From: Vairimorpha necatrix
Taxonomy: Eukaryota
Assembly (NCBI GenBank): GCA_036630325.1
Contig: CP142734.1
Location: forward strand, 310,001 to 374,000
Reading direction: 5' to 3'
Length of the DNA stretch: 64,000 nucleotides
The translations under genes and the position numbers were made by a program. Below the pieces are notes generated by a model. That model was given only the letters and a program-made list of their open reading frames with translations, made no database searches and was not told the origin of the DNA. Every line of letters begins with the position of its first letter. The first letter of the stretch is position 1. This document shows, in pieces, positions 8,247 through 64,000 of this stretch.

Positions 8247-8256
8247 TTGAACTTCA

Positions 8257-9281: not shown

Positions 9282-9289
9282 CCCTATAA
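9282..9289 (+). promoter_or_regulatory. Microsporidian CCC-like transcription signal upstream of ATG (representative example)
   Basis: accctataaATG after an AT-rich tract. Equivalent CCC/GGG motifs precede the starts at 11172, 13557, 16865, 18970, 22739 and 36990. Confidence 0.7.
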
Positions 9290-10258: not shown

Positions 10259-10476
10259 AAAGTTTGAATTATTTTGTTTTTATGAATATACATAAATTTA
10301 ATTAAAAAAATTGTCTATAGGTCATGGCAACTATAGTTCTATATCAATTTCTTGCCTTAATAAGCAATTTAGAAAAATTCGTTTTTTAAAAAACAACATT
10401 TATGAATTCAACTAAATATTTGATGTTATTCATGAAAAAAAATTAAAAAACATAATAAAATAATCATTTAATCGCA

Positions 10477-32099: not shown

Positions 32100-34584
32100 G
32101 GTACCCGGAACGAAACAGATCATTAAAAGCAAAAGGTTAAGGACCAAATAATAGATGATAATCTATATATTTACAAATAAAGAGAACTAATCATATTACT
32201 ATTAAGTGGAGGTGCAGTGTAAGGCGCTAATGCCTCGGCTAATAGTAGTATTGTTTACGTCAGCAATCTCGAATCCTGTATTTATTCATTGTCCATAATC
32301 ATGAATCAAATGCTGAATCGGTCTGTAAGAAGAACAAAATAAATAAATGAAACAAAAAATTATCTCTAGCAAAGATTCTCCTAGAAACATTTTATTTCTT
32401 GCCTTAAGAGGAGCAGGGGAAGAAACAATCGCCGAGTAAGCCCTACGAGTCTATTACAAGAATATTAAGGTATTCTAGGATAAATTTCTTAACTCAACCA
32501 AACACCAACCAAACTTTGGGTTTATGTGCTGATTTACTAATCAGGAATGCGGGCGAACAATGGTATCAATATGGGCCTAAAGATTTTGCGAGTGATGAAC
32601 ACAATGATAAGGCTCTAAGGCCTATTCCCGTGAATTTTTTTATAAAAGGGGACCCTTAAAAAAAAGAATCTATATTATTTATTTCGAATTAAAAGTTTTA
32701 AGAGAGTTAAAAAGGCGTCTTTATTGGTATTGGAATTGTGAGTTTTTAATTTATTCTCCTCCAAACATATTCTTCTATATACCCTGGTATTTTTTTTTCG
32801 TTTTGATGTCAGATTTGAAATTAAATCATTCACATTCTATTAAATTAGTGTGGTACCCATCAGCATCGTATATCCTTCCTCATGATTCACGATTTTATGT
32901 ACTATGCCAATTCCAGCAATAGCGTATGGGTAAGATCTGAGGCCATAGTATTTATTACAGACAAAAGACTAATATTTTCAGGGTAAAAGTTGGAGAATGT
33001 TTCTTTTTTTTATTTGGGATAACTTTAAGAACTAGTTTTTTCTTCAAACGCACCAATTATCCATGTAGCTTTACTAATTGAATCATACGTTTCAGATGGT
33101 GACTTTAAATGTTTTCCTTTAATTATAACACTCTCATACACTTGTATTGGGTGCTCTTCCCCCAGAATCTCCCACGTTGTCATGTTATCTTCAGTTATTA
33201 CTTCTAAAATATTCAGTTTAATTCTTTTTATAGTATTTAATAAGACAATAGTATTTTTATTAATATTATATTCATAATTTATTTCGAGTCATGAATATAT
33301 TATAAATAAGTATTTGCTTGTGTCTATCTTTGGACTTGAAATTTTTAGACCCGGAAAAACTGATTTGGATTTTCTACACAATAAGTTAGAACATCTGAAT
33401 AGAAAACTGTTCGAATAATAAATGTCATGTTCCAAAACCATGCTCTCGTAACATTTTGAGCATGTTTTAAATTCTTCAAGTAAGCCATGCCTTTGAATAA
33501 AGGCCATGGATGCTTCATTTGAAGAAAAAATGTCAGATCTCGAATTTCTTGGTTCTTGTTCAAAATTATTCATTTTTTAGGGGTTGTAAAAATTTCCCAG
33601 TTTAGGGCCTATCCCCGGGAAATGCCGTATTTTTTACGTTCATTACCCGGATAGGCCCTGGCGCCAATGATAGTATAATAATTTAAGATACAGATTCGTC
33701 TATGGAAAAATTGGCACAGTATGACATGTGGGTGGTAAATTGGACCTTTGCGGTAGTCCCAATTCCGTATTATCAACTTTGTACCATTAGTTTTATCCGT
33801 GATGCCCATGCACTCAAGATAATATTTACAATTTGAAAGATAAAAGTTGTGAAACCTATTTTTTGTTCTGAATGGTAAAGAGAAGCTTCCAGAGCTCAAC
33901 CCAAGGTTTATTAAAACAAATTTGAAGTATGCTGCAATAAGAGCATTTTCCATAGTTTCCCCGATTGTCAAATTTCAGCTTGTTTTTTTCGCTTAACCCA
34001 GGCTATTGATAGACGTGTTAAAAGTTCGGGGGTTCATCTGTTTACACATGTAAATCTATGGTTAAAATATTTCTTTTGTCTCTTACGGCACTCATATGTT
34101 GAATATGACGAAATATTATCTTCTTTTTTGGAAATATAACAAGAAAGGAGTTTTTCGGAATGCTTGACTGAGTTATATTTCTATTTCTTTACAAATTACA
34201 TTGATTTAAGATACCGTTTTCCGCCGAATTTGTGGTACACGCAAAATAATATAAATTTAGATTTTCAAGAACGTATATGCCATTGAAGGTTGTCATAATA
34301 CCTTTAAAGACACATTTGGTACAAGTAGCTACAGTTTTCATTTATTAGTAAGCAATTTTAAGAATAAAGAAGATATAGTTAGAATCAAGATAATGCAACG
34401 ACCCGTTTTAAATCATGTTTTCGAACGTAAACAAAAATACATTGATAAAGAGAAACGGCTAACAGAATTTTTTAATAAAACTGAAGTTGAAGGTTTTGGT
34501 GCAGATTTTGTCTTTATAATTATTGAACTATTAAAGTTTTATTTTCACTTTTATTTTTCGGAAGTTTCGTCCCGGCCATATGGG
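32100..34584 (+). mobile_element. Degenerate Mutator-like (MULE) element with FLYWCH zinc finger, interrupted by a Merlin
   Basis: KWRCSVR..C...HNH (FLYWCH), WVVNWTFAVVPIPYYQL (degenerate DGTF), FPDCQISACFF, FPPNLW and AIEGCHNTFK. Possible TIR remnant ccgg(a/g)acgaaac at both ends. Absent from copy A. Confidence 0.78.
32619..33659 (-). mobile_element. Degenerate Merlin transposon nested in the MULE
   Basis: N-terminal CSKC..FRCSNLLCRK and PIQVYESVIIKG..WIIGA. TIRs ggcctat../..ataggcc; degenerate 8-bp TSD GGCTCTAA/GGCGCCAA. Confidence 0.75.
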
Positions 34585-34869
34585 TTAAAATAATATTTAT
34601 GGGTCAAAAACGTCTCAAGTAGAGCTTTTAACCCCATACAATATCATCTTTATTTAATTACCTTTTACATATTTTTATTTCGATATTAAGTATTACCCCT
34701 TTCAAAATCCTCATAAATTTTTTTTTCAGTTCTAACCCACTGAAGTTTTTGTTAATGTTATTTAGATGTTATAATCAGTACAAAAATACAAACATGATAT
34801 TAATATTTATAGGTATACTTTAATATGTATAAAAGTCTACAATCATACAATTAGTGACACCCTTTTTTG

Positions 34870-36400
34870 GCTTACTTTTTACTTGACATTATAAACCTAG
34901 AACTCTTTGTTATTGCATTATTACATAACTTCTTATATTCTACTGTGTTTAAGGGTAAATAGATTCACACTGGCCACATAATATTTGTGCCAATCACTAA
35001 AGATTTAAATTTTTCAAAATGAAATTCAAGATATCCTACTAAGACACTTTTGTTCTTAAGAAAAATCTAAATAATAAGAAGGCTTTGTATAATTTCGTAG
35101 TAATTAAATTGCTTTCAAAATATTGTTTTTATCTTAAATTTAGTTTTGTATCTGTGCGAAGAAATATAAGTTTATTTGACTAGTGTTTATCTAGTTTGAA
35201 AAAAAATAAGAAGGAATTGCATCTGTAGACTGAACAATATGAGTTAAAGTCACTATTGAAATAATTGTCATGGAGCAAAGTAAATGACAGAAGACAAAGC
35301 CTGTCTATTGGGCATAAGAATATAAATATCTTCATAATCTAAGGTGCCTACATTCTATGATGTGGTTAGTAAGGTATATGATATAAATGTTAACAATGAT
35401 TATTTATTATAAAATTTAACTTCTATGCATAAAGCAAAAAGATATAATCATCTAGAAAAATGTATCTAGGCCCATATCGATCTCGATTTTGAATGGAATA
35501 TTAAACTGCAAGATAAATTCTGGGTGTAGCCTGTAGAAGCTCAGGCATATTAATTCTGACATGGGGGTTTTGAGCCAACTAAGAGGATGGGTGAAGTAGA
35601 GCAACGATAGTCTTATGTTCTTTTTTTTCTTTGCAAAGAGCTAGGGAGAACCGTCTCATAGAAACCAGGAAGGTTTGTTGTTGATTTCTATCTACTTGAT
35701 TTTATATAATTCTTATCGACATAATTCCCTCTAAATATTTGCTGGATAAGCAATTTCTGTCGTATAACTTGAACTTTGGCTTCGGGAGATTGTATTTTAC
35801 ATCTATACCTTCAATCACGTGTGTTTTTTCCAACAAATATAATTAACAGGCATGGTTTTAATGACCCGGGATGAGTCATCTTCGCCTAAACCAAAAGTGT
35901 ATTGATCATCTTTTATACACAAAACAACTTACACCACCGCTGATCAGCCTTATTTTTTTGGTTGAGTTCACTTTTATTCTACCAACAATTTTGATCATCG
36001 TGGAATAGTACCCACAAGACTTTGTCTTAAACAAGCCTAGAGTCTCTTGGTTGGCTCTAAACCACTCCCAAAATGTAAAAGCCAAGGGCTTAAATCAGTA
36101 ATTACCTAGTTGATACTTTTATCTATCGAGAGTCCATATGTTCTAGGTTTGAAGATGCATTTTAAAATATGTGCTATTTTTTATGGTTAGACTCTTAAAG
36201 TTTTATTAAATCAAATTAACGATTATTGAATATTTTTACTATCTGTGTGGATCAACTGCATCATAAGAAGTAGAAATATTTAGGTGTTAGGGGATCCGAA
36301 CCCGAATATGCCTAAGAGAAACTCTGCACGAACTTAGGCTAAAGGACACCTAAAAGTTAAAAAAATTCAGGAAACGATCTGAGTATATCATGTAACATTG
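34870..36400 (-). pseudogene. Decayed gene of unknown family (copy 3 of 4)
   Basis: Fragments FKPLAFTFWEWFRANQETLGLFKTKSCGYYSTMIKIVG..LISGGVSC and EDDSSRVIKTMPVNYIC. Colinear with 2300-3880. Confidence 0.5.
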
Positions 36401-36989
36401 TTTTTTTTGAGTAATAATTTTAATAAAATATTTGCACTATGAACCAAATTATACTATCAAATTCAAATTTGTTGTTACTTTGTAAATATAAGCACTAAAT
36501 TTCGTTAAAAGAATCCAATAACAAGAAATAAAGAAGCAAAAAATAAGTAAAATTATTTTAGAGTGCAGCAAAGAATTCTTACTATGCAAATCGCTTGAAA
36601 CATGTTTTATTTTATAGAAGAAAACCAATTTAACATGTCCTGGAATATTTGAAAGTATAAATAATTTCTTGCGAAATTACAAAAAACATATATAAAAATA
36701 TTAAATATTTATATAATCTATAACATTCCTTTTTCATTTTTTTAGTTTGTTTTTATGTTTTTGTTTCTTTTCTACATTTCAAGTTTTTATTTTCGAAAAA
36801 GCACAAAAATTAAAGAAAAATATAAATTTTACTTTGTAGACTGTAATTTTCAACTAAAATATCTAAAAGTATATTTTTGATTCTAAAACATTTTCTTTTT
36901 ACAAATTTATAATATATTTTTTTCATATTGCCTTCATCTCAATTTTCAATTTTTCTTTAAAATGTTTTTTTTTAATTTTAAAACAGGGT

Positions 36990-37325
36990 ATGAATAACAC
37001 AGCTTCTTTAAAGAGGGAAATCGAATTAACTTCTAAACTATATTATAAATCAAAGAACCAGTTTAAATCATCAATAATACTTAGTAGACTGAACGAAGTT
37101 AGAAAAAGAGGCAAAATATTTCTAAAAAACAATACAATAAAAAATAAAGAACTTTTACAATGTTCTTGCATAAACTTGTATATTTCAGCATCTTCTAATT
37201 ATACGCTTGGACACTTTATTAAATTTTCAATTGTTTTATTTGGTATTTCTAGTCGTATATATACCAGTGTACAATGTTTTAGTGAAACTATAGATGAAAT
37301 TGATGATATTTTTGAAGATTTATAA
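36990..37325 (+). CDS. Rmp1/NEPRO-like RNase MRP protein subunit, 111 aa
   Basis: E.ELTSKLYYKSKNQFK, LY...LGHFIKFSIVLFGISSR and terminal DEIDDIF resemble Rmp1-family motifs (HRNKNQHR, LGQF, DEIDDIF). GGG motif before the ATG. Confidence 0.7.
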   Translation: MNNTASLKREIELTSKLYYKSKNQFKSSIILSRLNEVRKRGKIFLKNNTIKNKELLQCSCINLYISASSNYTLGHFIKFSIVLFGISSRIYTSVQCFSETIDEIDDIFEDL

Positions 37326-37588
37326 TTAAATAAACTATTTAGTGCCTAGAAATCCATTTATATAATTTAAATTCTGCTATAAACATCTTACATTATGTTT
37401 GTGTAGTATTAAATATAATTATTATAGTGTTATACTTTTGCATATTGGCGCCACCAGGGAATTCGTCCTACTTCCCTCAAAGCGTATGAAAAAAAACCAC
37501 TTCTTTGAAATCAATAAAACTCTTTATTCTTGTTGCAGTATGAATTTTTGCTACATGTCAAATTTCTCATATTTAAGAAAAAATTGAA

Positions 37589-39143
37589 TCATATATATAA
37601 CAGAATTTTATTTAATTTTTTACCCCTCTTTTTTGTGGTTTTGAAAAATCTAGACTACAAATTTTAGACTTATTGTGTATTAAAAATATCAAATTTACAT
37701 CTAATGTTTCGATGTGATTATTGTAAGTGTGTATATTATGTGTTAATGCATTTTTATTCTAATTATTATTTTTGTTAAACTCAGTTCCAAAATATCGTCA
37801 GAATCGTTTTTTAGAATTTATTTAACCCTTCCACAAAAATTCATAAAACAATTAACCATTTCGGATTTCGAATGATAAGTGTCAAATTTTGAACTAAAAA
37901 ACATTTAGAAGTTAAGCATTGAATTTTATATAATAATTTGAATCGAATTCTGTATTTAAGTCTGCCATTAATCTAATATTTACAGTTGTTAAGAATCATA
38001 TTCTCTTCTTTTATTATTCCAACCCAAAATGGTAAATCAATTAAAAAATGCAATGCGCACACACATTTATCCCGTTTTCAAAACGGGAAAGCATACGCTA
38101 GTCATATATATAAAAGAATTTTATTTAATTTTTTACCCCTCTTTTTTGTGGTTTTAAAATTTCTAAACTATGTATTTTGATCTTATTAAGTTATAAAAAT
38201 AGTTTTTTTAGATTTAATGTTTCAATTTGATAATTGTAGATGCGTATACTATATGTTAATACTTTTTTGTTTTTTATAAATTTTTTGTAAAACTCAGTTC
38301 CAAAATATCGTCAGAATCGTTTTTTAGAATTTATTTAACCCTTCTACAGAAAATTGCAAAATATCTGACAAATAAAGATTTTGAATGTAAGTATCAAAAA
38401 TTGAGCTTTAAGAATTCTCAAAATTATCGTAATGAGATTCATATGTGTTTTTAACTTACTTTTACGCTTTAGATGTTACTTAAAAGTGTATTTTAAAAAG
38501 TCAAAAATATACTTTTCAAATTCCTTCTTCGCGAAATGGAAATTCAAAAAAAAGATAAAGGAGGTACTTATTTTAAAGCAAAATTTAAATATCCCGTTTT
38601 CAAAACGGGAAAGCATACGCTAGTCATATGTATAAAAGAATTTTATTTAATTTTTTACCCCTCTTTTTATGATTTTGTAAAATCTAAACTTCTTATAATA
38701 GCTTTTTATCTTATTATAATATCAGATATAAACTCAATGAAGTATTTTGACTATCGTAAGTGTGTATGTTATAAGTTGATACTTTTTTGTTTTAATTATT
38801 ATTTTTGTAAAACTCAGTTCCAAAATATCGTCAGAATCGTTTTTTAGAATTTATTTAACCCTTCTAGAAAAAATTCACAAAAATATTAACCAAAGAAAAA
38901 TCGAATATAAGTGTCAAAACTTGAGCTTAGAAGTTCCCAAAATTTTTTAAATATAACTCATAAGTGTTTTTAACTCAACTTTACTCTCTATATGTTACTA
39001 AAAAGTATTTCTAATAAACATGCCTTTACCCTGTCAAATTCAATCATCCCAAAATGGAAACTTACCAAAATTTACCGAGGCGGGACATATTATAAAACAA
39101 AACATATTAATTCCCGTTTTCAAAACGGGAAAGCATACGCTAG
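37589..39143 (+). mobile_element. Head-to-tail trimer of non-autonomous Helitrons (37589-38101, 38102-38623, 38624-39143)
   Basis: Each unit starts TC and ends with the hairpin TCCCGTTTT-C-AAAACGGGA, 9 nt, then CTAG. The array sits between an A and a T. Confidence 0.88.
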
Positions 39144-40607
39144 TTGTTTATAAAATTATTTGTTATAAATAATTTTCATAAAAAGAAGGGTACGCGGCAA
39201 AAGAAGAAGATAAGAAACAGATGTAAAAGGAGGTAGAGAACCAAACAACAATAACAAAAGATTTATTGAGTTAATTTATCATTAGTCTTAAATAATTATA
39301 ACACTGCTTTCCTCGGTATCTCTCATAGGATTTTGCTCTTCGCAGAATTTGGTTTGAGTTGATTTATTTATACTTTCGAACTTCACTTTTTCAGCTTTAT
39401 TCCCCTTTGCCGACACCACTTCTTTAACAGACGCCATATTCGCTAGTGCGCTTACAGCTCTAGCCACTTCTTCTCCTGCATCCTCCTGATCGTATCCTCG
39501 TCGTCGTTCCAAATATATAAACTCTAGAGTCTTCTTCATCACAATAGACTGGATATACGCTATAAGGTAGGGCAGGATTTCTAGCTCCCTGATGTACTTT
39601 CTGTGATATTTGGTCACTATTACATCCCCCATGTTATTACATAAGGAACTATTCTTGTATGGGATTTTTGTAGTAGTCCCAGTTCATTTGCAAGAAGGTC
39701 ATATTTCCTTGTTTTTCAATCTCGACTATAGTAAGTCGATTCTGTTAGTTATACCAACTTCAACTAAATTTTTTTTCTTCTTGTCAAACACAAGATAATC
39801 AGGCTTATCATGGGTCACCTTTATATTAGTGGAGATTCTCGTACCTACTCTTATTTCCGCACAATCATTTTCCATGATCTCTTGTATAGAGTTTCCACGT
39901 ATTTTCTTTGTCTTCTTAAACCCATATTACATACATAGTAAGAGATGTATGCATCTAACTTCCTCGTTGGGCCTTTTCATATAATTGAACTCAACATTTG
40001 ATAACATTATTAGCTAATGATCCACAATCTTCCCATGAGATCTACAATGAAGACATTGTCCCACTCTATTGTCTACAGAAAATATTTCTATCCTGTAGGA
40101 AGGAGTGAATTGTTTGGGTCTAGCCTGATGGTTTCCTTACAACATCCAGGTAGAAGAATCCTTGATGAAAACTAAATCTACCCCCTTAGCTTTAAACAAT
40201 TTTCCATGGTTTGTCCTTATTTTAATTTTGCTGTAAAGCGCTTCTTTCTAGGATTCTATTAGCATCTTCCGTGGATCTCTCCTACAAAGCTATACCAGAT
40301 CCTTAGATACTCGTTAATTGTAGAAAAGTGGGATTTGCACTCCGCTTCTTTTATAGAATCGCTGCCCGTCTCAGAAAACTACTTCGTAGACTATATACTG
40401 TTTTATAAATATTCAGAAGCCTATTTTCGCTTCTATCTTCGATACTTATCAGCCTCTTCCCATTTTGGATATAGTTAGGTATTGTCTTTCCCTCAGTCTG
40501 GCCGTAGATGGAGCTGGTACTTGATAAGTACCTGTCGGATATCAAAAATGAGACTTTGAAATGTATTAGTATAATTTTAGAAGTCCTACATGATAGCTTT
40601 TTACTTA

Positions 40608-48812: not shown

Positions 48813-49650
48813 GGAGGTGGGGTACTTTAGACCCCCCCCCTTTGAAGCGCTTCAATTTTTTTTTCGAACCCCAAAATTGAAGTGCAAAAAAAAAGAGGAG
48901 CAAGAAAGGGACAAAAATTTCTTATCACTTTAAACATTAAAAATACAAAATAAATATATATTTATGTACACAATTATATTTTAATACAAGTTTTTACAAT
49001 AATATAAACCAATAAGCTAATTTTGCCCTTCTGATTTTTTAGAATTGGGGACAAAAACGCTCCCCTCTGAGAGTGTTCACTTTATAATTTTGAACCCCAA
49101 AAACGAAGTGCAAAATAAAGGAGAAGCAATCATTAGTACTCAAATTACTTGCATCTTCAAACAGTAAAAATACCAAATAAATATATATTTGTATACGAAA
49201 TTTAATTTAAAAAAAGATTATAACCATAAAACTATATAAGTCTTTATAACTTAACATATTTAAATTAAATTTTTTGATTTAACAATATGTGTAGATCGTT
49301 GAACATTTATTTAAATTTTCTTTTATAAATAATATTTATAATTTTAATTGTTGGTTTATTATTAAAGTAGATTTTTGAAGAAAATCTACTTTAATAATAA
49401 ACCAACAATTAAAAAAAATTGAAAAAATAAGAAGGGCGAAAAAAGACACAATACTTCAAATGATTATTATAACTAAATCTAAAATTAATTTTTGTATAAA
49501 AGCATATATTTATTTGTTATTTTTAATGTCATAAGTGATAAGAAATTTTTGTCCCTTTCTTGCTCCTCTTTTTTTTTGCACTTCAATTTTGGGGTTCGAA
49601 AAAAAAATTGAAGCGCTTCAAAGGGGGGGGTCTAAAGTATCCTTCACCCC
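48813..49650. mobile_element. Merlin-derived MITE (related to 21741-23006)
   Basis: Long near-perfect TIRs and perfect TSD TCGAACTA. Shares asymmetric termini and the subterminal motif cgaaccccaaaa..gaagtgcaaaa with 21741-23006. Empty site in copy A at ~5425. Confidence 0.92.
49342..49414. repeat. Perfect 34-bp inverted repeat with 5-nt loop
   Basis: ttttaattgttggtttattattaaagtagatttt-TGAAG-aaaatctactttaataataaaccaacaattaaaa. Confidence 0.95.
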
Positions 49651-52600
49651 TCGAACTATAAAGTTATTAATTTTTGCAAAATAGGCGAATCAACATTCAT
49701 TTTAAAAAAAAATATATTATTAATTTAAACCGAGAATTCCTCAAGAAAAAAAATAAGGAAAAAATATAAGATTTCAAATCAATAAAACACCATTATTTAA
49801 TGTCCTAGTGATTGATATTCCGTACTTTTACACGACATTCCCCTATTATATAATGGATACTTAAAGTAGTTCTATAAGGTGTTGGGACAAGGTTTTTTGT
49901 TTCTTTAACTCCTAACAGAAAACGTAAAACTATAACAGAAGAGTTTTAAAAAAAAACTTTGCTCCCGGAACTATTTTTGTTACTGATGAATATCCATCAT
50001 ACTTCAAAGCCGTGGCAAATTTTGGTTCTGAGCATGAAATAGAAAGTCAAAGCAAAGGATTTGTGAACAGCGAGGGTGACATAAAATTAGTTTGAAAATT
50101 TCTGGTTCACTTTAAACACGATTATAGAAAAAGAAGTGGATTAAATCAATGTCAAATCGTAATAGATTTAAAAAAAATTCGTAAGAGACATTGTCAATAA
50201 TTTAGAAAAAAAATATTACATTCCTCATGCCTTTGTTTTATTTTTTACAAAAATGTTCGGTTATTTAGTAAATTTTTTTGTAGGGAGCCGATTTTTCTAC
50301 TAGAGCCACTTTCGTAAGAATGATTTAACAAATACTATACCAAAGTTCTTTATTTTACTACATATAAAATGACAATCAAACCTTTAATCTCATCATAAAA
50401 ATATGTAACTTGGATTGACTTTGGTATAATGGAACACTATTGCACATTTTTTTCTACTCATAATAATACTACTACTTTCATAATGAAATAACTTTAAAAA
50501 GCTTAATTCTTAAATCATAAATGGGCTTGTTACTGTTCAGGAAGAGGTATTCGAGTGTCCGATAATTTGATTTCAGAAAGAAACGTTAGAAGAAATTGTG
50601 AGTGTATCTTGTAAAAAGTAATTAGTAAGTTTGATATTATACCAAAAAAAATAAAATTACATACATAAATCGCTTTAGTTACGGATCATAGAAAAAAAAA
50701 ATTACTCAAAAATTTTTTTTTAAATGTTTTATGCAAATTGTAAAGCAGTTAAAACATGAGGAATTTCTCTGTTGCTTTACTTTTAAGTACAAAAGCAAAT
50801 TCATTAAAAGAAACACTAAAAGTTAAAATTTAATAAAATGATTAAAACGGTCCTAAACAATTCAGAAAAGAATAAAAGATATTGTTTCTGTTGGCGTGAT
50901 ATACTTATTATTTTATCTTGAATTAAAGCATATAAAAAATAAACATACACTTTAATATTTTCTAAGGATAAGAGTTGACTTATAACAATACAAGAAAAAT
51001 TCGATACCATGGCCCATCCAACGGTTAAGTAAAATATCAACATCATAACAATGTAAATGTAAATCACCACAAAAAAGAGTAGTCATGTTCATTAAGCAAT
51101 AGCTTAACAAAAAATGATTTTTAAATATCTCTATCGCCTTAGTCTGTTCCAAGTGATATTATATTCGCATTTACTATCTAGAATTAGAGAAGACGATATA
51201 TTACAAACAGCAAATTCTATAGCATGATAATACCTCACACATGTCTCTAAACAATGGCACATCACTAATAAGGCATTTATGCATTACATTAGCATTTGTA
51301 ATAAGCGAGTATAGGCAAGCGTGATACTAAATATTTTAGCATAAATACTCGGTTTTAGGCTCTTTTAGTTTACTCGCCAAAGCTGGATTGTAATTTTTAC
51401 TCATACATACAAATATAAATTATAACATAATATATTATGCATACATATAAGTAGTAAGTAATATATTGAAATCTTTAGAGGGATTTTACATAGGTTACAA
51501 ATCTGCATATGATTGAAAACTACACAAGTTCATAACTATACCAAACAATTGACGCTTACAATTATTTTTTTTTTAAACAAATGGCGCATATCGGAATAAA
51601 GTTTGACATTTCATTATTGCAGCAAACGCTTACTAATATGTTATAAGACCTAATGCTGTGCATCGTTTGTTATGTATATAACTTTCAAATGATTTGTGTT
51701 GAATCGAGACATTAAAGATTTATATTACAACTTTAATTTTCTATACACGCATGAATTTGCAATTGCCCAAAGTTTATATTTATGACGATTAAATATAATT
51801 CTAGTTATATAACTTCCAATGTTATAAAATTTATAATACTTTGTTGAAAATTTATGATAGCTTAATAAAAATTTTTGCAAAATTGAGGCAATTAAAATTT
51901 GATTTTGTGGATTGAGTTAAATTGTGTTTTTGAGGCGTTTTTTATATAACATTTTCTGCGAGAGAACACATGTTTGTCTTGTCCATATATTTATTATGTC
52001 TTATGTCTGATAAAATTTACGGCAGATATAATATTTTCAATTTTCGACCTACAATCATGTGTTATTATCAGGACATTGCTAAAAAAATTCAAAGTTTTTG
52101 AAATCATATTTTATCTATTAAATGTTTAGATTAGTTAAAGAAAAATTATAGATTTTATACGTTGATATAATTAATTTGGAATATATTTTTTCCTGACTCC
52201 AAATGAACACAATGATACCTTAAATCTACATTGTATCTTTCATCAGCATTTTTGTACTTTAGTTTTTATTAAAATTCGTTTGGTAAATTTTAGGAAATAT
52301 TTTGTATATGATTTTTTTTATAGTGTCCTTTCTCATTTATATGATGTATCGTATTTTAAATTATTTTATTAAAAAAAGACGTCTAGTTTGTTTTTTGGTC
52401 TATAATTATTACAATGCAAAACTTAATGATCTTTTTTTTAATACAATAGTTTTAAAAAGCAAAATTTAGATGATTTATAACATTTAATTTGCTTTTTCGA
52501 ATTAAATTTTATTTGTGTCGATTAAAATATTTTTCAAGCCAACACAATACTGTTACAATGTAATATTTATGCTATATTTAAATATTCAATAGCTTTAAAT

Positions 52601-52806
52601 TATTATTCTAGAATATTTTACCATCAGTTCTAATAATAACAGCATAATATACGACGTATAAAAATGTTTGTTTTTTTAAAAAAATTGTGTAAGAAACGGT
52701 ATTTTTTTGATTTAAAGCCTTAAATTCCATCTAAGCATGGCGTATTCATATATTTTATTTTGGTAAATTTTTTAATTTAAATTAAAAAAAATAAGAAACC
52801 CCATAA

Positions 52807-53775
52807 ATGAAGCCGAAAGATCAACTTATGATTAACATATTGCCCTTTATAAAATTAAAAAGTTCTGTTAACAAAAGTCAAGAATCTTCAGAATATTTAG
52901 ATGAGAATAGTAATGAAGATGTTTGGGAAGACGTTAATAAAATTTTTAAAGGCTCTTTTAATTTTAACAATGTAGTAAATAATGACAGTCATAAAATAAA
53001 AAATAAATATATTGATCTCATTGCTCCAAAGTTACAACAAACTCGTTTGTCATTTGAAGTATACTGTAAGTCTCGGCCTGACAATAAAACTTTAGATTTT
53101 AATTCTATCAGAGAATTTCCAAAATGTAATGCGTATTTGATTAAAAGAGCCTGCCAATGTGATCAGGTTTGTATTGACGAACATATTAAAAATATCATAT
53201 ATGATCCTTCTTGCGTCATTTTCGATCTTACAAATGTCAATACTGACGTGTCATACCTTGATAGTTGTGATCGTGAGGCATTAAGACCTTATAATGGTAC
53301 ATTAAAATTATATAAATTCGGATTTAACATTGAAAGAACGACTAAAGAGTTGAATGACTCTATGAACGCAAGTTGTAGATCATTTACTTACGCGCCTGAT
53401 CTTATTTGTAATGCATATGAACTAAGAGATGAATGTAAAAATGAAAAATTTTGTATGTCTAAAAATTTTATTGTACCTGGAAATTGTACACTTAATTTTA
53501 ATAAAATAAAAGAAATATTGGGAATTGAAAAAAATGGGATTTCTACAGAAAATCTAGTATCGAGCACCGATAATCCAACAGCACAAGCCGCCATTCTTAT
53601 GCCTATTAAAAACGTCAATTATTTTACTATCGGATTATCTGGGGCTTGTCTAATTATATTTTTATGTTTAATAGTTGTAAGTCTTTTTGGAAAATCAGTA
53701 AACAAAAAAATATTTTTTTTTTCAGTAATTGGGGTGATAATCGTATTCTTATCTTTAATATTGACTTTATATTAA
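52807..53775 (+). CDS. Hypothetical Cys-rich membrane protein, 322 aa (paralog of 9290-10258)
   Basis: Intact ORF with CCC motif. The N-terminal ~195 aa are diverged and the C-terminal part is nearly identical to copy A. Confidence 0.85.
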   Translation: MKPKDQLMINILPFIKLKSSVNKSQESSEYLDENSNEDVWEDVNKIFKGSFNFNNVVNNDSHKIKNKYIDLIAPKLQQTRLSFEVYCKSRPDNKTLDFNSIREFPKCNAYLIKRACQCDQVCIDEHIKNIIYDPSCVIFDLTNVNTDVSYLDSCDREALRPYNGTLKLYKFGFNIERTTKELNDSMNASCRSFTYAPDLICNAYELRDECKNEKFCMSKNFIVPGNCTLNFNKIKEILGIEKNGISTENLVSSTDNPTAQAAILMPIKNVNYFTIGLSGACLIIFLCLIVVSLFGKSVNKKIFFFSVIGVIIVFLSLILTLY

Positions 53776-53993
53776 AAAGTTTGAATTATTTTGTTTTTAT
53801 GAATATACATAAATTTAATTAAAAAAATTGTCTATAGGTCATGGCAACTATAGTTCTATATCAATTTCTTGCCTTAATAAGCAATTTAGAAAAATTCGTT
53901 TTTTAAAAAACAACATTTATGAATTCAACTAAATATTTGATGTTATTCATGAAAAAAAATTAAAAAACATAATAAAATAATCATTTAATCGCA

Positions 53994-54689
53994 TTAATTA
54001 TGCAGCAAGGGATTCCTATGGGTGGAATTTAAAGGAAGAAAGAAATCACTCTGTCTATTTATGGCGAAAGCATTAACAGTAGAAAGTTCAGTTGCATTAA
54101 TTTTATATCCATCATTCCATATATTATCACAAATTAAGAAATAATCATCGAAATTTAAAATTTTCGTAATAGCATTGTTCCTTTTTTGATCTATTTTTAG
54201 ATCTAAAAAACGAGACAATACAGGTTCTACATTTTCTATATCAAATTTATGAATAAGAAAATAGTAGCAAACGAGGTTTCGAAAAAATTTTTTGAAAGCT
54301 TTTCCTAACACATATTCAAATTTATGTTTTGGTTCCTTACATATAATAGATTCTTCATCTTGTCCCATCATTGAATCTATAAAACTCAATGGAGACAAAA
54401 ATTCCTTATCTTGAATTATTTCTTCTTTCGTCCCTTTATTATATATTATTGGAGATTCTATATTATCATGAAGTAACCAATATATTATAAGTGCCATTGG
54501 AAAGACATCGCGCTTCCTATAATATTCATTACCAACCACGTAAACTGAACCCTTTCTGTTACATAGATTGAATAACATTATATGAAAATCATCTTTTAAC
54601 CTACTTAAATCTTTTTTTACTGTTCCTCGAAACCTTTTCTTACTTGCATTTAGTAGAGTTAGAAAAAACATCAAAGAAGCCATACGCAT
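53994..54689 (-). CDS. Hypothetical secreted protein, 231 aa (identical to 10477-11172)
   Basis: Identical translation; start supported by the CCC motif. Confidence 0.8.
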   Translation of the reverse strand: MRMASLMFFLTLLNASKKRFRGTVKKDLSRLKDDFHIMLFNLCNRKGSVYVVGNEYYRKRDVFPMALIIYWLLHDNIESPIIYNKGTKEEIIQDKEFLSPLSFIDSMMGQDEESIICKEPKHKFEYVLGKAFKKFFRNLVCYYFLIHKFDIENVEPVLSRFLDLKIDQKRNNAITKILNFDDYFLICDNIWNDGYKINATELSTVNAFAINRQSDFFLPLNSTHRNPLLHN

Positions 54690-56211
54690 TTTATGGGTAT
54701 ATTCCAAACAAATTTAAAGGAATTTAAGATAGTTTTAATTAAAAAAAATTAAGTCAAGTCAAGTTAAATGAAAAAATATATAGAATTTTTGAGATTATAC
54801 ATTAAACAATGCAGTATAATTTATAAATAAATCTCAGAAAATATAATATACATTAGAAAGCTCATCGATAAGATTGTTAAATAACTTTTAAAACTTAAAT
54901 TTATCGCTTAGAACAGGAATTAAAGGATAAAGTCAATTTTGATGCTTTATTTTGTTTCTTCGTCGAAAAAATAAAATTGATTATAATCATCCAATTTAAC
55001 CTTATTATAATATAAATTAAAATCGGAGTTTGACAGGAAATATTCAATACCTTATTTGGGTATAATATTATATCTTAATTAATAATTACTTTTCACAAGA
55101 TACGCTTAGAGTTCTTCTGACAGTCCTTGGAGTTTCTCTGGAATTTACGCAATGGACTCTCGACAAAAAATATAATTAAGTATATTCAAATAAAATTTTG
55201 AAATTTTGTTCTGACAGGAAAAATTACCATAAGTCTAATTAATTTGCGTCAATAAAAAAAGATAGGACTTTTATTGAACAAAGAGGTGCTCTAGTTTTTA
55301 AGTCTAATATTAAGTAAAAGTATTTAGGATTGATAATGTTTTTTTTTTTTATACTAATTAAATTTGACCTATAAAAAATAATTAGATGTAAACTAAGGTT
55401 TTTATGGTATAGAAGGCTCAAATTTTTGGAATTTGCAAATGGTTTAAATTTTTTCTGCTCTTATATATTATAAGACGTTTATTATATAATTGCATTTTAA
55501 ATACTTAAAAATACCTATATTGACAATTTACAGCCATATTTATAAGTAGGTATACATAATGAAACTTGGTTTACTTCGACCATGGCGACTAAAGTCAATT
55601 TATAATTTATCCTAAAGCAACTCTAAGTTTTATATAGTATATAATATTGTATACTGTGTTTTTTCTCATTATAGAGTCTATTCGATATACGGGATTTTTT
55701 TTCAAAAATGATAATTATAGATTTATGAAAGGACGTATAAATTCTAAATACATAAAATTTTTTTTTGTAATTAATTATACGCATCAATCTAAGAACAAAA
55801 GGGCATAAGTTCAGTAATTTTTGTATAAAGAAATCGATTTGTAATAATTTTATTGTTGCATGTATTTACATATCTAATAATTACATTATTTTGGTTTTTA
55901 AATTTTACGATGTGTTGAATATCTCAAAATATAAAAATAAATTTTCGAAAATAATACTAAAATTAAAAAGGTTTCTTCTATAAATTTTTTTAAAATTTGG
56001 AGCGAGAGTTAAAAGAAGATTGTTGTTATAAAAAAAATTAAAGTTTTTACATTAATCTTCATTGTGAATCATGAACCTGGTTTTTATAGGCACAATGTAA
56101 TTTTATTGCAAATTTCTTATAATTCGTATAAATATTTGTCAAACTATAATATTTTTTAAAGAAAATTGCAACGTTAATAAAACAAGGTTATATTAGATTA
56201 GTAAATTATAT

Positions 56212-57078
56212 TTAATTTTTTTGAATATTTTCTATTATCAAATTTGAAATTATTTCCATGTGCGATAAATAATTATCTAAATTTATATAAAAATTTGATA
56301 TTATTCTATCTAATGACATCAACTCATCTCTAATTTTACACAACAGAATAAAATTTATATTTGATTCTTCGACTAAACATTTTCCAGCATAATTTAAGAT
56401 TTTAGGCAATGAAACCTCACTTATTAACATTTTAATATAGTTCGAATATATCCTATAATAATCAAGTAAATATTGATAATGTAACTTAACTTGACATTTA
56501 AATGTGTTCATTGTGATCAGATCAACGCATCTTTCAACAAATTCAAAAACAAATACATAGAATTCTAATTTGTTCCTTGATAAATTTAAGCAATTTAATT
56601 CGGTTTTTAAAATTTTCGTACATTTTTTTGTGGAATATTTCAAGTTATTACTTTTGCATTGTATTCTCTTTCTATTTGAAGAAATAATGTGAAAATCTTT
56701 AGGACATATAGATAGTCTACCTCTCATAGCGGTAGGTAGGTATCTTAATTCATTTTGTATTTTTTTTATCTCGCAATAAACGTCTGAAGATTTGCTTAAT
56801 TCAACAATGAGACAATATAGATTATCATTTTTGTCGATTAAATGTTCATCTATAACATTAAAAAGTAAACTGAGTTCATCTGGTCCTAGCAAATTTAAAT
56901 TTTGTTTTATGCATTCTAATTCTAAGAAATTCTCAGTAGTTCTATTAAATATCAAGTCAGGCGTCTGTTTATTAGATTCATATATATAAGATGCATATAA
57001 ACAACTAGAAGTGTTCAAACAAAAGGTTGACGAAGTAATAAAACTAATTTCTAAAATTAATACGTAAATTGAAAACAT
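56212..57078 (-). CDS. Hypothetical secreted protein, 288 aa (identical to 12691-13557)
   Basis: Identical translation; start supported by the CCC motif. Confidence 0.8.
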   Translation of the reverse strand: MFSIYVLILEISFITSSTFCLNTSSCLYASYIYESNKQTPDLIFNRTTENFLELECIKQNLNLLGPDELSLLFNVIDEHLIDKNDNLYCLIVELSKSSDVYCEIKKIQNELRYLPTAMRGRLSICPKDFHIISSNRKRIQCKSNNLKYSTKKCTKILKTELNCLNLSRNKLEFYVFVFEFVERCVDLITMNTFKCQVKLHYQYLLDYYRIYSNYIKMLISEVSLPKILNYAGKCLVEESNINFILLCKIRDELMSLDRIISNFYINLDNYLSHMEIISNLIIENIQKN

Positions 57079-59016
57079 GGGGTTGTTGTATAAAAACAAC
57101 AAAATTTTAGATTTTCTAAATATATTTATATTATTTCATTAACGATTAATCAATGCATACAAATTGCATGATTTTAATTAATTACTTTTATTTTACATAG
57201 TTTTGTTTTAAGACTTCTACAATTAAAAATGCTTTTATCTCATATATTAAATCTGTGAACAATTATATTTTTGTATTAGTCTGTAATTTATTACAAAGAC
57301 AACACTTAATATTATTTATAATATATATATAATTGCATCTAATTAGTAGAGCAAAATTATAAAATCTTCCTCTTATAGTATTATAGAAACCGATACTTAC
57401 ATTTTATTATTGTTTTGTTTGTATAATGTCATATTTTTAATAATAAGTCATTCTTGATTTTTTGACATTATTTGTATATTTAATTTAAATCAAAATACCT
57501 CATGTATTATATAAATTTTTATTTATTGTATAAAACTATTCTTCTAAACAGAAATTTTGTAAAAATATGAACATGCAAATCTGCAAGATTTATCGCATGA
57601 ACAGTTATAAAATCTTTACGCCTTTTAAAATATTATGAATTAGACATTGTTTATCTTAAAGTATTTAATTGTTTATATATAAATTTTAATTTTTGTCTTT
57701 TGTTCTATAATATGTATATACAAGAAATAACAGGGAACATGTTGTAAATTAATTCTATGGATACTATTGTTTTGACATAATTGTATTCGTCTGAATCTAC
57801 TTTCTTAGTAATTCCCCACTACTTTCTTTTGCGGACTTTAAAAAATATACATGTATTTTGGATTGAATATAGACATCAATTTGGCTATTTCAGCCAAGCA
57901 CAATATAATTTATGATAAAACAGCAACATATAATCTCACGCAATAACATACGAAATATTCTAAAATCATTTTTATAAAAAAAGTTTCGGCAAAAGGTTCC
58001 ACATATAATAGTTATTGGATTTTTTGATTTATTCTTGATTTATCTTTGATTATAAGCATATTTGTATCGCACTTCGAACAAAAACCATCTCAAAAGAATA
58101 GTGAACAAAATTCTTAAAGTTTGATTAATTTTTTATTAGAAAATTACAACTTATATTTTCATTAAAAAGCAAAATAATATTTAATAAAAATCTGTTACAA
58201 TTTATATTTTTATTAATAATATTTTTTTTAGAATAAAAATTATGTTCTTATTGTTATAAACACAATATAGTCTGTAATTGTTGAAAGGAAAAACTTATCG
58301 GCCTTGAGAAAATGTGCTTCTAAGTATGAGGAGCTCTAATATTTTTTGTAGAGAGTAAAAATGTATTTCGATAAATATAAATATTATTGATAGTACAATG
58401 ATATCAAATTAGATATTTAAAAGCAGGTTTTATGTTAGTTTCTTTAATAAACTAAACATATACAAGTTATAAAAAATAAAATGCAAAGCTAGATAATGAG
58501 AAAAAATATATACCTGCAATCTTCTAGTTTTGTTTGTTTTTTTCTAAAATATTTGTTTTAGCTAGATTTCAAAATTTTTAAGAGAAGCATTGATAAATTA
58601 AAAATTACATCAAAAACATATAAACTACCAAATACAACAAATTAACAAATGTTATTAATAGAATAAAATACTGAATGTATTTTGGTCATAAAAAATCTGA
58701 TTAAAAAATATTTATACTATATTTCTAATTTTTTTATACTATTTGCAAATAATATACAAATTAGCATCAAAAATTGCCAAAATATTATAATTCAAAAAGT
58801 AAGATTATTGTTAACATAAGATTTATTTGTTCGTTTGAGGACAACACACAAGAAAGTTTTTAGACGAATAATTTTTCGCAGAATTTTTAGTGATTCATAA
58901 TGTTCCTTAATAAATAAAACGCAAAACAACTATAAGTTTTGAAATTAACATATTATTACACAAATTCTTCGATTTTAAACGTAAAAATATACAATAAATT
59001 TCACACTAATTGTTTA

Positions 59017-60392
59017 TTAATCCCTAAAGAATACTTTGTATAACCCTCTTTCTACTAGCTCTTCGTATTCTTCTTCAGATACACTTTCTAAGTCAACCTT
59101 GGATTTACTATGTTCTAATATGACATGATAGATCTTATTGCTGATAATCACTAGTAATTCGTTACAGTCTGTAATATACAGACATACATTTTGATTATAT
59201 GTCGCATTCAATTCGCAATGTATATCATACAATTTTAATGGATGATATAACAATTCAGGAATACTATTTGGTCTATATTCATCATCTTCATGAAGAGAAT
59301 ATGTAGTCTCGATCTTGCAATACAATTTGTCTATTTCTACTAATTTGAATGAATTTTCATCAATGAACGAGATCTCATAGACTTTTGATTCAGATGAGTT
59401 GCTTTTACTTAATCCATATGGATAACCGTAATTATCATAACATTTTTCATATTTACATTTTTGATTCGCAATTGGTTTACATTTTACATGCAAATATTCA
59501 TGTTCTTGACTGCTAGATTCGTTACAGACGTATCGACAATCTTCTGAACTTGAAGATTCACATGGTAAGAAACATCTTGGAATATTTTGGTTATCATATC
59601 TCTTGTTACAGTGATAAGAACGCGGTCTTTCACAAAGCACTTTTTCTTTGAGATATGAAAGAATGTTTGTATCGCAACATTTGTATTTTTCGTGTTGATG
59701 TGTTGGATAAGCGTACTTATGACAATTTGAATTATTGTAATTTGATTCATAACATGGTGATGGTAGATAATTTGCTTCGCAGCACGAAGTAGGAACGTTT
59801 ACTTCACAACACGGAGAAGGAAAATTTGTTTCACAACACGGAGAAGTAGCTTTATGCGATTGATTGTGTTGAATTGGTCCATGTATCGATCCGTTACATT
59901 GTGTTGGTGCATTATTTGATTGACAACATGGCTTCGGTACATATTGTGCAGGTATCTGAACATGCTGATTTTGTGTTACTTCGGACTGATGTGTAATGGT
60001 CGGTGTATTATGAATTGGCGCAGGTTTCGTGCAAATTTCTGCTGACGGAACAACAATTGAATTTTTTCTTGCACTGTCCTTGGTTTACATGGACAAGCTG
60101 CAATACAGAATGCATACCTACTTGTATTCCTATTTTTAATGTACGGTGACAATGTACCATTCCAAGTTAAAACCATCAACTTCTTATTATTCTCCCATCC
60201 ATACACAAATGCAGACTCGACCTTTGCTTCTTTCAGTATGTTCATGAGAAATACTACATTCTTCGCATTTGCTACTACTCCGATGCCCGAGCTTTTCCTA
60301 CATATCTCATACGGATCGTCGCATCCATCTCCTTCTATGAGTATAGGGAGGAATGCCCTTACGACACTAAGGATAAAGAGAGCAATCTTCAT
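59017..60392 (-). pseudogene. EnP1: EnP1 paralog with 1-bp frameshift
   Basis: 1376 bp versus 1377 bp in copy A. A deletion near 60057 shifts the frame after ...TVQEK. Confidence 0.75.
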
Positions 60393-62199
60393 TTTGTTAA
60401 ACCCTTAGTAAAAATTTTCTATTTATAGTTTTTTTCTATTGTTTATTTGTTTAATGAACACAATTATTTTTTAAAAAAAATTAATTAAAAAGTAAAAAAA
60501 AATAATTTTAGCTAATTCATATTTCCAGATTTGTTTACAATAAACAGTTTGTTCGTTAAATTGTTTGAGTTTGTTGGTTTTTAGTTTTGAACACTAACAG
60601 AGAGACCTTTTCTCAACTTTACTAAAAATTTTTAAAGTTAGCAAAAATGATTAATTAATAATCACCAAGTTTTATCATTAATTATAAGGTATTTTTATTC
60701 AAATTTTACTTTAACTGTAATACAATTTTTATAATATAAGACTATTGCAAATTAATCAAATAACCACGAATTTTTTTTGTCATGATAATAAAAAGTAATT
60801 TACTCAAAATACGCTCATAGTAACAAGAAAAAAAGTACAGAATGATATTTAGTCATGTTTTTTCATTTTGATAGAATTATAACATAGACTAATAAATCTA
60901 TGATAATAATGATGGATATAATGTGTATATACAATAAAGTTATATAATTTTTTTAATTTTAGGATTAAATATACTTCTCAAATAATAAAATGAACTTATT
61001 ACAGACACTTAGAAATAATGATGAAAATAATCTATAGCATTAATTAAGCTACAAATAATATAAAAGTGTGTTTCTATTATTTTTATGTTCTAAATACATC
61101 TTATTATTTTAAATATTAAGTTTATTAATGATATATTACATGTTTGCACATAAGTTTTATTTTGTTTGAATATTTATGGCAAATAAAAAACTTTTCTCGA
61201 TTTATTGAATTAATTTTCAAAATAAAAACATTAACAAAGTGGTTTATGTATTAAGTCTACTTATAAGTCAAACTCTTTTCCATTTTTAAATATTGAAATA
61301 GATATTAAATTTTTTCAAGTGAAGTATAGTACTAAACAGAAAATTGAAAATGCATTTCGTTAAATTATGTTGTTAACATATCCAATCATTAGTATATTTT
61401 TTAGATTAAATCAATCATATAGATATTATTTTAATATTATAACATCAATGAGGCTTTTTGACACAAAAAACTTGTTTTTCGTATTTTCCTGACTTTACAG
61501 CGCCTAAAAAGACAGAGTTTAACAATAAAGGAATTAAATTGAATGTTTGAAAAACTGGTTTTAATAATCAATGACCCAAAAGTTAACAATCAACTTTCAA
61601 TATTATATTATGATTTTTCAAAGTATTTTATTGGCTTCAATTTATATACCATTACTTTTATATGTTGTTTTCTGAAGTTGGTTTATAGTATTTTGAGAAA
61701 ATAATTAATTATTTGAATCCAATTTGTAATAAAATTTGGCTAGATTTTTGTGTTTATTTTTCTTCCAAAATAAAAAAAATTGTTTCTTTTAAATGTTTTC
61801 TCTAGAATAGATATCATATTTAGTATAATTTTAAATAATGTAATATAGTAAGAGTTAATCAATTTACAATAAAATGCAAAGTTTGAACCCTCAACTCATA
61901 TTTAAAAAACTCCTACATTCTCTCGTGAGATATTGAACATTTTTTGCTTGCCCTAACTTTCAATGAAAAGCAAGAAGCGCATTATTTGAAATTTTGTTGA
62001 TTCAATGATCTACAATATTAACTAAAAATATTTGATGATTTTTCATAAACAGAATCTTTTCAATAAGCTATTTTGTGAGCTTCCATAAGAGGATAAAAGA
62101 AAATGATCAAATTTTAAAATAGAGCTATTTTCTTTATAAAAATTTGATTTTCAAAATTTATACTTGTCTCCATATTTTAAATATAAATGTTTATTGTCT

Positions 62200-62499
62200 T
62201 TACACCCCATTTCTTATCTCACAATTACTAAAATGCGCCAGTCCTTCCGTCATTATCTTCATGTCTAAAGATTCCCTCTTGAAGATAATTTCTGCGTTGC
62301 TTATTGGCTTGTAATATTTCAGATTAAATCTGAAAATATAATCTAAGAGAAATACAAGGTCATAATTTCTATCTTGTTCTTCATAATCTACCACTGTATT
62401 AGGTAGAAGATGTCTGATTCTCTCTTTCAGATCTTCTGATACAATTTTAAGATTGTCTAATATTAAAATACTCTTAGGAATATTTTTAAGTCCAAACAT
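62200..62499 (-). CDS. NUS1: Minimal Nus1/NgBR-like protein, 99 aa (paralog of 18671-18970)
   Basis: Intact, with 4 amino-acid differences from copy A; keeps the terminal CEIRNGV. Confidence 0.65.
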   Translation of the reverse strand: MFGLKNIPKSILILDNLKIVSEDLKERIRHLLPNTVVDYEEQDRNYDLVFLLDYIFRFNLKYYKPISNAEIIFKRESLDMKIMTEGLAHFSNCEIRNGV

Positions 62500-62721
62500 A
62501 AGGGCATTTGTTTTTTTTTATATTTCTCATTAAATGCAATTATAAGACACACTACACCATTTTGACACATTGAAACATCTTCTTGTTTTTTTTTCTTCAA
62601 AAAATTTTCTGTTTTGAAGACTTAATCATATCATCACAGACAGTCTTTAGATTAGGCATTCTATTAAAAAAATTGATTCCTATTCTAGACAAGAGTTAAT
62701 TTAGAAATCTACCTCCATAAT

Positions 62722-62997
62722 CTACATCTTCATCATTATATTCTTTAATAATTTTTGCATCAAAGATATAAATTTTTTCAAATTTAATTTGTCTTTATTT
62801 TCTAGTAATAAAATTATTGTTTCAACAAGACTTTTAAAAATGTTTAATAACTTGATCAAGTTTAAAAAATCGTCTTTATTGACATTTGTGGGCTTTACAA
62901 ATATCTTAATTGTCTGATTATCGACTTGTGGTTTAGAAAATTTTTTGTACGAACAAACATGTACTGTTAAGACACAAAAGATTAGGATAAAAATCAT
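62722..62997 (-). CDS. Small putative secreted protein, 91 aa
   Basis: Signal-peptide-like MIFILIFCVLTVHVCS and an upstream GGG. It may be a remnant of a longer gene. Confidence 0.45.
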   Translation of the reverse strand: MIFILIFCVLTVHVCSYKKFSKPQVDNQTIKIFVKPTNVNKDDFLNLIKLLNIFKSLVETIILLLENKDKLNLKKFISLMQKLLKNIMMKM

Positions 62998-63059
62998 GAA
63001 AAGATTAGCCCATTGGTTATTGGTAATGCTTAAATGAGCAATGACTGGTCTCGTTTAAC

Positions 63060-63743
63060 AGTACCACCAATATTGTTTTTACTTTGAATGCAGAATGAAA
63101 AACTTGGATGTCGAAAATGTCCACGATATTCATTAAGTAGATTCAATGAAACTTGTGTGTCCAGCTACAAAAGAACATGCATCTAGTGTAAAAACGTACC
63201 ACAAGGCGAAAAAACAGTATCTCTTTTGAGGTGACTAAATAATACATAAAGGTATCTAATAAGTATGGCCTAATTGGAGCAATGGATGGCACTCTAAAGT
63301 GGGAACCTAGAGCTAACTAAGAGACTAGACGAAGTAGGGCAATAGAAGGTCTCGTGGTCCCTATCCTACAAATTCTGTAACACGCTTGAATCTAGTGGAA
63401 GAATGGTGGTCAACGCAGCCCAATAAAAACACAGGGCTTGTGATGTGGTTGTGTAAGGAGCCGTGTGTGCAACACAAATGATTGTAAGGATCTTTGAGTC
63501 AGTACGATGATGTCTCTCCTCGGGTTATAGATAAACATGCCCGTTAAGTATATCCGCTGTGAGGTCACTCTAAACGCAATTAGAGGCATAAATGGGAAGT
63601 GATCTCCTAAAGCCAAAGTCCAATGGATAAGAGGGAGTTTTAGTGAGTAAGATTCTTTCAGTACCAGTTAGATGAGGATCACACCCAAATCCCTCTGGTT
63701 CTTATGCAAGGTTTTTCCCTACCTCTTACTTGCAAGGAAAAAA
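63060..63743 (+). pseudogene. Decayed gene of unknown family (copy 4 of 4)
   Basis: Paralog of 19520-20245. Fragments KNLDVENVHDIH*VDSMKLVC, DDVSPRVI and NMPVKYIRCEVTLNAIRGI. Confidence 0.5.
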
Positions 63744-64000
63744 ATTAATGTAAAAATGTCACTAGGCTTATAGTGAAGTTGAACATTTTAAAAGAAGCCA
63801 CCCTTTATTATTACAACTTTTTTTTGCAATTAATTTTTCTAATAAATAAATGATAATTTTTTCACTCATAACATGTTTTTAATAAAAAATTTTGTGTATT
63901 GTATTAATTTGAACTTTAATGAATACATAAGATATATAGTTTTTTAGAATTCGATAATTACACATTTGTAACACCTCCAAATGATATGTTAGAGGCAGAC

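Follow-up and report, generated by a model that had tools for sequence, protein, structure and literature searches.

The locus at positions 37589–39143 of the window raises two questions: why a short internal block is kept identical in repeat units whose bodies are strongly diverged, and how such unlike units came to be joined exactly end to start. The window is the whole 64,000-nt stretch that was analysed, G000:C9:310001-374000 in a 15.0-Mb genome of 12 contigs. One protein of the window is identical to an NCBI entry under the name Vairimorpha necatrix. The original prediction described a Helitron trimer with units of 513, 522 and 520 bp, joints of CTAG|TC, an A before and a T after the array, and all of these were recovered. 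The 55-mer is identical at all three of its positions, as are the last 32 bp of the units, and the first 40 bp have two variable columns. The features are as follows.

37589–38101, + strand: unit 1, non-autonomous Helitron of 513 bp, recombinant
38102–38623, + strand: unit 2, 522 bp, with a 99.4% twin at G000:C7:394655
38624–39143, + strand: unit 3, 520 bp
37589–37627, 38102–38140 and 38624–38662, + strand: 5' termini of units 1, 2 and 3, 39 bp common to RepHel elements
38070–38101, 38592–38623 and 39112–39143, + strand: 3' termini of units 1, 2 and 3, a hairpin and then CTAG
37777–37831, + strand: internal block of unit 1, strict 43-bp core at 37789–37831
38290–38344, + strand: internal block of unit 2, core at 38302–38344
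38810–38864, + strand: internal block of unit 3, core at 38822–38864
3841–4044, - strand: decayed relic of the same Helitron family (27 bits), 5' end and block both eroded
33295–33296, + strand: A|T site, empty here and occupied by family members in the paralogues at G000:C7:626355 and C11:432328

The 5' terminus of the units starts with TC, followed by a TATA-like stretch and then a T tract with CCC. The 3' terminus contains a hairpin with an 8-bp stem that ends 14 nt before the end of the element, and CTAG is last. The region of the CTAG/TC junction folds with a z of -2.2. The trimer units are covered by contigs of two sequencing runs from two studies, one of which may be the source sample; no contig spans the whole stretch, and no RNA run was among those listed for the sequence. 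On one side the trimer is flanked by an old duplicated stretch (71%; 2182–5050 and 34743–37508). Its other neighbour is an 81% repeat (7433–8247 and 39256–40083) that resembles the start of a decayed retrotransposon.

Genome-wide, the 3' motif has 230 matches and the 5' motif 233, with none for control motifs. A 15-mer of the block has 273 matches vs 17 for its reversed control. The loci that were fetched comprise 214 ends, 210 starts and 209 blocks and gave 197 full units of 499–537 bp out of about 230 copies. Another element's end precedes 120 of the 210 starts (72 directly, 41 through one to three TCA and 7 otherwise), and a few of the remaining 90 starts adjoin RepHel or variant ends upstream. 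A host A is present before 80 of 90 first units and a host T after 94 of 94 last units; in clean arrays the A is upstream in 74 of 83 once TCA is stripped. Insertion is without target-site duplication. Among ten rows that lack TCA, empty paralogues join exactly in six and are 1–3 nt off in four, two of the ten rows not being true empty sites. The (TCA)n extras are copies of the element's start, not of the target.

These units have the canonical Helitron features, i.e., 5' TC, 3' CTAG (CTRR class), a hairpin at the required distance and A|T insertion. Helitrons are recognised by a 3' CTRR with a hairpin 10–15 nt before the end, and their families are delimited by the terminal 30 bp, according to PMC13286980. 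A RepHel partner with shared termini is present in the genome. All testable hallmarks of a canonical Helitron are present in this family. Sequence comparison confirms that the trimer consists of members of a ~230-copy family of ~520-bp non-autonomous Helitrons, recently mobile, in a microsporidian parasite of insects. Recent movement is indicated by 24 twin pairs. Metagenome contigs gave no matches to the block and no confirmed RepHel loci. Whole units are in two cases nested in other units at A|T (G000:C9:1037853 and C5:463372); the orientations agree in one case and are opposed in the other. Different family members are also found at apparently the same site within copies of other repeats (G000:C7:626355 and C11:432328; C4:850356, C9:753029 and C10:707712), which suggests insertion hot spots.

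The genome has 22 Helitron_like_N matches. Seventeen RepHel elements were delimited, of which 15 are ~5.1 kb and 12 lie in arrays. Twelve of the 17 have an open reading frame of 1421–1434 aa in which Pfam RepHel domains and the HUH, two-tyrosine and Walker A motifs are recognised. All 17 elements have the first 39 bp and the hairpin arms in common with the units. A profile alignment sets unit columns 1–447 against the first 413 bp of the RepHel elements at 44 bits, of which 26 come from the shared start, with a heavy composition bias. The units are very probably non-autonomous canonical Helitrons to which the 5.1-kb RepHel element supplies the enzyme, and they are probably old internal-deletion derivatives of that element with the same layout, for which the profile alignment is weak evidence. 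The original prediction proposed a search for the block in RepHel-encoding elements, and none carries it by sequence, by BLAST or by weight matrix (best score -23.9 vs -24.7 for shuffles). The profile alignment places the block opposite RepHel bases 159–221. Helper diversity drops there to 0.048 from 0.194 in the variable stretch before it, and RepHel stretches further on are low as well (0.075–0.096). The RepHel elements have a low-diversity stretch that is possibly colinear with the block.

The 610-bp RepHel leader (L152 2333–2950 and others) has about three copies of a T-rich/CC/A-rich motif, 170–180 bp apart, which coincide with the least variable windows of the leader. The leaders show two haplotypes at bases 40–158. 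Among the relatives listed, the two nearest to the L152 RepHel reach 55% (an unnamed record) and, across two thirds of the query length, 64%. The second carries the label Papilio xuthus, which may point to transfer between host and parasite or may be an error of labelling.

The internal block is conserved throughout the family. The full 55-mer is exact in 86 of the 197 units. Its last 43 bp, the core, are exact in 110, with at most one mismatch in 178 and at most two in 191. Among 164 non-redundant units (the set after collapsing at 97%), the first 39 bp have a diversity of 0.020, the core 0.024 and the last 32 bp 0.024; the value rises to 0.10 in the 5' shoulder of the block and to 0.275 in either body. 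In 10,000 column permutations no run of 43 columns was as conserved as the core, and the lowest value was 0.125. The block is therefore better kept than its flanks across these copies. The proposed invariant block of 55 bp is identical in the trimer and conserved family-wide, but only its last 43 bp are strict and the shoulder is looser. One unit with five shoulder changes has recent twins, and the shoulder is therefore dispensable. The 3' edge of the block is sharp and single positions within it are still polymorphic. There is no coding or 10-bp periodicity in the conservation pattern.

The ratio of private to shared alleles is 20:12 in the core, 39:25 in the termini and 165:721 in the bodies, whose sites are partly saturated. 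The core thus differs from the bodies (p 1e-7) and not from the termini (p 1). Per site, private mutations are about as frequent in the core as in the body. In five of six decayed copies examined the core is eroded to 0.76–0.88 along with the ends. Changes in the core therefore arise but are seldom passed on, and the core is lost in decayed copies, which fits selection at propagation or transposition and not host upkeep of every copy. Core-mutated units have twins in 10 of 46 cases vs 36 of 146 for intact units (p 0.84); 5'-end mutants give the same result, so the test is weak. The 43-bp core is likely to be a third cis-element beside the termini. The bodies would diverge over many copying rounds and recombine freely, with the termini and the core purged of change at each transposition.

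The best overall explanation, with a probability of about 45%, is that the units are mobilised by RepHel, stack at their 5' sides and carry the core as a cis-element with a promoter or open-chromatin role. Candidate functions of the core would rank as promoter or open-chromatin licensing, then a protein site, then minus-strand priming. The first is placed ahead since RepHel cuts only single strands and transcription supercoiling has been proposed to supply them; for Helraiser, the proposed source is negative supercoiling behind transcription (PMC4778049). As a candidate function, a compact host-type promoter or nucleosome-free site can be assigned to the core only tentatively, at somewhat less than even odds. 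Transcription or factor binding at the core, 200 bp inside the element, would help to open the AT-rich 5' end and so provide a substrate for the single-strand-specific RepHel nuclease. In the autonomous element the same 5'-opening service could come from the RepHel gene's own leader.

A CCC is present within 20 nt of the ATG in 44 of 86 host-like open reading frames, vs 3 further upstream, and CCC near the start codon is a motif reported for Nosema ceranae (PMC2685015). With 12- and 20-nt windows the score of the core's CCC equals the host median and lies at the 91st background percentile; with a 40-nt window it is at the 55th background and the 2nd host percentile. The GC-rich half of the core is found upstream of none of the 86 host-like open reading frames. 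The 5' terminus matches a promoter better than the core does (99th background percentile), which makes a second promoter at the core look redundant. Of the cis-elements first suggested for the block (promoter, small RNA or origin), the promoter gains modest support from the CCC scores. A structured RNA or a hairpin single-strand origin was rejected: the block has no stable fold (z +1.2 and +1.1 for the two strands), no base-pair covariation or compensatory changes in the family alignment, no Rfam family near the cut-off (two weak matches, E 0.6 and 2.3) and no tRNA.

The core could instead be a second RepHel site, or the site of a host DNA-binding protein that loops to the 5' end, and would in this way raise nicking or loading and give the units an edge over the helper. 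Its 3' half repeats a 13–14-nt motif of the 5' terminus, 210–211 bp downstream in 168 of 194 units, or about 20 helical turns. A protein site would need no secondary structure, and the level of constraint is that of the termini. The spacing from 5' end to core is tighter than that of the 3' body (SD 1.0 vs 1.9), which is modest evidence and is confounded by fewer homopolymer runs in the 5' body. The core sequence is absent from the RepHel elements, however, and the repeated motif, which is AT-rich, may follow from the same promoter grammar at both places. A protein site is considered rather unlikely.

Less probable still is a minus-strand priming signal, which would turn a 520-nt single-stranded circle into a double-stranded donor. 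Helraiser needs double-stranded donors and a circovirus-like minus-strand primer has been proposed for it (PMC5876387). A very small circle could need a dedicated site where a 5-kb circle would not. Single-strand origins of plasmids are hairpins with base pairing, whereas the block has neither a hairpin on either strand nor base-pair covariation.

The bodies of the units recombine extensively. Linkage decays from an r2 of 0.16 to 0.01 within 180 bp, and all four gametes are present in 9,813 of 10,585 column pairs. Mosaic painting with the stricter penalty requires at least one switch in 140 of 164 units. Unit 1 of the trimer is a clean recombinant, in which the 5' half matches G000:C1:1014158 and the 3' half G000:C7:721068, with the parental switch painted between alignment columns 188 and 208. 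These data bear on a very improbable alternative, a functionless block whose uniformity is due to gene conversion or to crossovers focused on it. Linkage across the block is indeed below that at equal distances elsewhere (r2 0.012 vs 0.034), and many clean half-swaps switch inside the block. However, the block holds only 18–20% of the switch mass vs 14% by length, where 62–81% would be expected if long perfect homology were needed, and linkage is equally low at columns 280–310, which are not conserved. The sharp 3' edge of the block, its polymorphic single positions and its erosion in decayed copies also argue against this alternative.

Three other roles of the block were tried and rejected. 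A dedicated crossover hot spot was suggested by the low linkage and the half-swaps and weakened by the mosaic painting. If circles integrated by crossing over in the block, the two halves that span a junction should be found together as units elsewhere; they are in 0–4 of 98 cases vs 0.3–3.7 at random, and switches are spread along the body. For a second nick site, no partial copy starts at the internal TCA and no TCA insertion is present there (266 profile hits, 197 aligned units). A small RNA that is encoded or templated by the block and needed by the parasite itself is highly improbable: CCC motifs precede microsporidian non-coding RNA genes (PMC5499648), but the block has no Rfam family near the cut-off, no tRNA and no fold, and its core gains private mutations at about the rate of the body.

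An origin of the trimer as a single rolling-circle concatemer, or as an old satellite diverged in place, can practically be discounted: exact CTAG|TC junctions are expected from circles and concatemers (PMC4778049), but neighbours are as unlike as strangers (identity of adjacent units 0.80 vs 0.79 between arrays), single-unit twins are found elsewhere (46 of 192 units) and multi-unit blocks are not common to loci (recurrent junctions 1 of 98, a local duplicate inside one array). A twin is here a unit with at least 97% in both halves, and the 192 units are those left after dropping five segmental duplicates. From the same observations, the units move singly and the trimer is no concatemer. Of the two origins originally offered for the array, landing of diverged members at each other's ends is borne out by this single movement and by the 120 of 210 starts that follow another element. 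An old array under constraint conflicts with the 99.4% twin of unit 2 on another contig and with unit 1 being a recent recombinant.

Arrays reach up to 10 units, and two paralogous pairs are informative on how they grow. The arrays at C8:562896 and C8:600423 agree fully in their 1-kb flanks and in five units; C8:562896 has one extra 5' unit, which is identical to C11:145063. The arrays at C6:62462 and C9:1040894 have the 3'-most unit in common (98%) and differ upstream of it. Their downstream flanks are 99.8% alike over 600 bp; upstream, the nearest 60 bp are common and only 65% is alike over 600 bp. These comparisons favour growth at the 5' side, although a loss of 5' units in place of a gain is possible. 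Unit 3 would be the oldest of the trimer if its array grew with the polarity of these pairs. There is no age gradient within arrays, i.e., twin frequency and decay are independent of position. Fresh targets resemble the element's own start, with ATAAA or TATAA soon after the site in 58 of 83 vs 9% of control sites. Target preference alone was rejected as the cause of stacking: the element's own 5' end is at the 98.7th percentile, yet ~43,000 genomic sites score equally, a figure extrapolated from 200 kb with a target matrix that may underfit. Duplication of the next unit was rejected as the source of 5' partial units, which are only 80% and 81% alike in two of two cases. In the proposed mechanism, the resident 5' end is nicked by RepHel and the free 3'-OH would serve as a landing pad for the incoming element.

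The (TCA)n runs at 5' ends are missing from most empty paralogous sites. A paralogous site was available for 22 rows, of which 12 have upstream TCA. In these 12 the empty copy is shorter by exactly 3n in seven and nearly so in two, the TCA is also present in one, and two are not empty sites. TCA is found at 9 of 45 solo copies vs 16 of 38 arrays (p 0.03). The runs may originate when a nicked resident 5' end is extended by three bases and joined again at an A, or else by slippage during repair. In maize, (TA)n excision footprints are known. Runs of (TATAA)n and (TA)n right after CTAG ends (G000:C3:224245-224276, C4:1141610 and C5:15306) are possibly a 3' counterpart of (TCA)n. A fuller model, at somewhat less than even odds, makes Helitron mobility in this parasite depend on a third cis-element inside the unit, always equally far from the nick and serving as licensing promoter, protein site or priming signal. 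It combines this with RepHel-nicked 5' ends as landing pads that build polar cassette-like arrays, (TCA)n that count past nicks, and bodies that recombine like those of tiny rolling-circle replicons.

The units are similar to Helraiser/Helibat1 and its HelibatN partners as described in PMC4778049 and PMC5876387 in the 5' TC, 3' CTAG, subterminal hairpin and A|T insertion, and also in an AT-rich preference 3' of the target and one RepHel of ~1,430 aa. They differ in the 120 of 210 starts after another element, the (TCA)n at 5' ends and an internal block constrained like the termini. Stacking of unlike Helitrons end to start is already in print: the maize r1 region has two adjacent head-to-tail unlike Helitrons with a G|T junction (Du et al. 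2008, PMC2267711). That pair was explained by consecutive insertion, and insertion at the A|T before the resident 5' end is one of two models given. Maize r1 is a single case whose account gives no definite order of insertion, whereas the present family offers 120 such junctions, arrays reaching 10 units and, in favour of 5' addition, two paralogous pairs. What goes beyond the known stacking is the internal core, the evidence on direction and the added (TCA)n. In the literature searched, which included few subscription papers, neither this family nor (TCA)n additions nor an internal block as constrained as the termini was found described.

A dispersed repeat of ~700 bp in Nosema ceranae, a related host genus, is likewise non-coding, often tandem and of several subtypes, and conservation in it is high at a promoter-like motif (Cornman et al. 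2009, PMC2685015). It is unclassified and not called a Helitron in the description given there, on which this comparison is based. The N. ceranae repeat may be a counterpart of the present family, which may then explain that tandem repeat and its conserved promoter. Non-autonomous Helitrons with internal transcription signals include the heat-shock-element Helitrons of Caenorhabditis, for which a mobilisation benefit was suggested (PMC6927752), and the promoter-carrying HelibatN3. Their signals, repeated or captured host motifs, occur in only some of the copies, whereas here a single motif is present in nearly all copies and was not found upstream of sampled host genes. The Helraiser papers leave open the source of 5' single-stranded DNA and the conversion of circles to double strands. 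The family is a natural mutational scan, with 164 distinct 520-bp copies, 27% diverged, and three short change-resistant stretches, one of them internal. With intact 1,434-aa RepHel genes beside the units, direct tests are possible of what the core does, of the rule for landing at 5' ends and of how (TCA)n arises.

A short Helitron 3'-end piece is present twice, 3.6 kb apart and with the same downstream flank, around gypsy-like open reading frames (L120, G000:C4:93570 and 97196), as if carried in both LTRs of a gypsy-like element. Elsewhere in the window there is a 12-kb segmental duplication of 92.9% (8425–20500 and 51946–64000). A 458-aa open reading frame at 15489–16865 has a copy of only 138 aa in the second duplicate (59976–60392). 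An IS1595/Merlin-type transposase (21921–22739, PF12762) lies between inverted repeats (21741–23006), and short inverted-repeat elements related to it are located near 48.8–49.6 kb (48813–49649).
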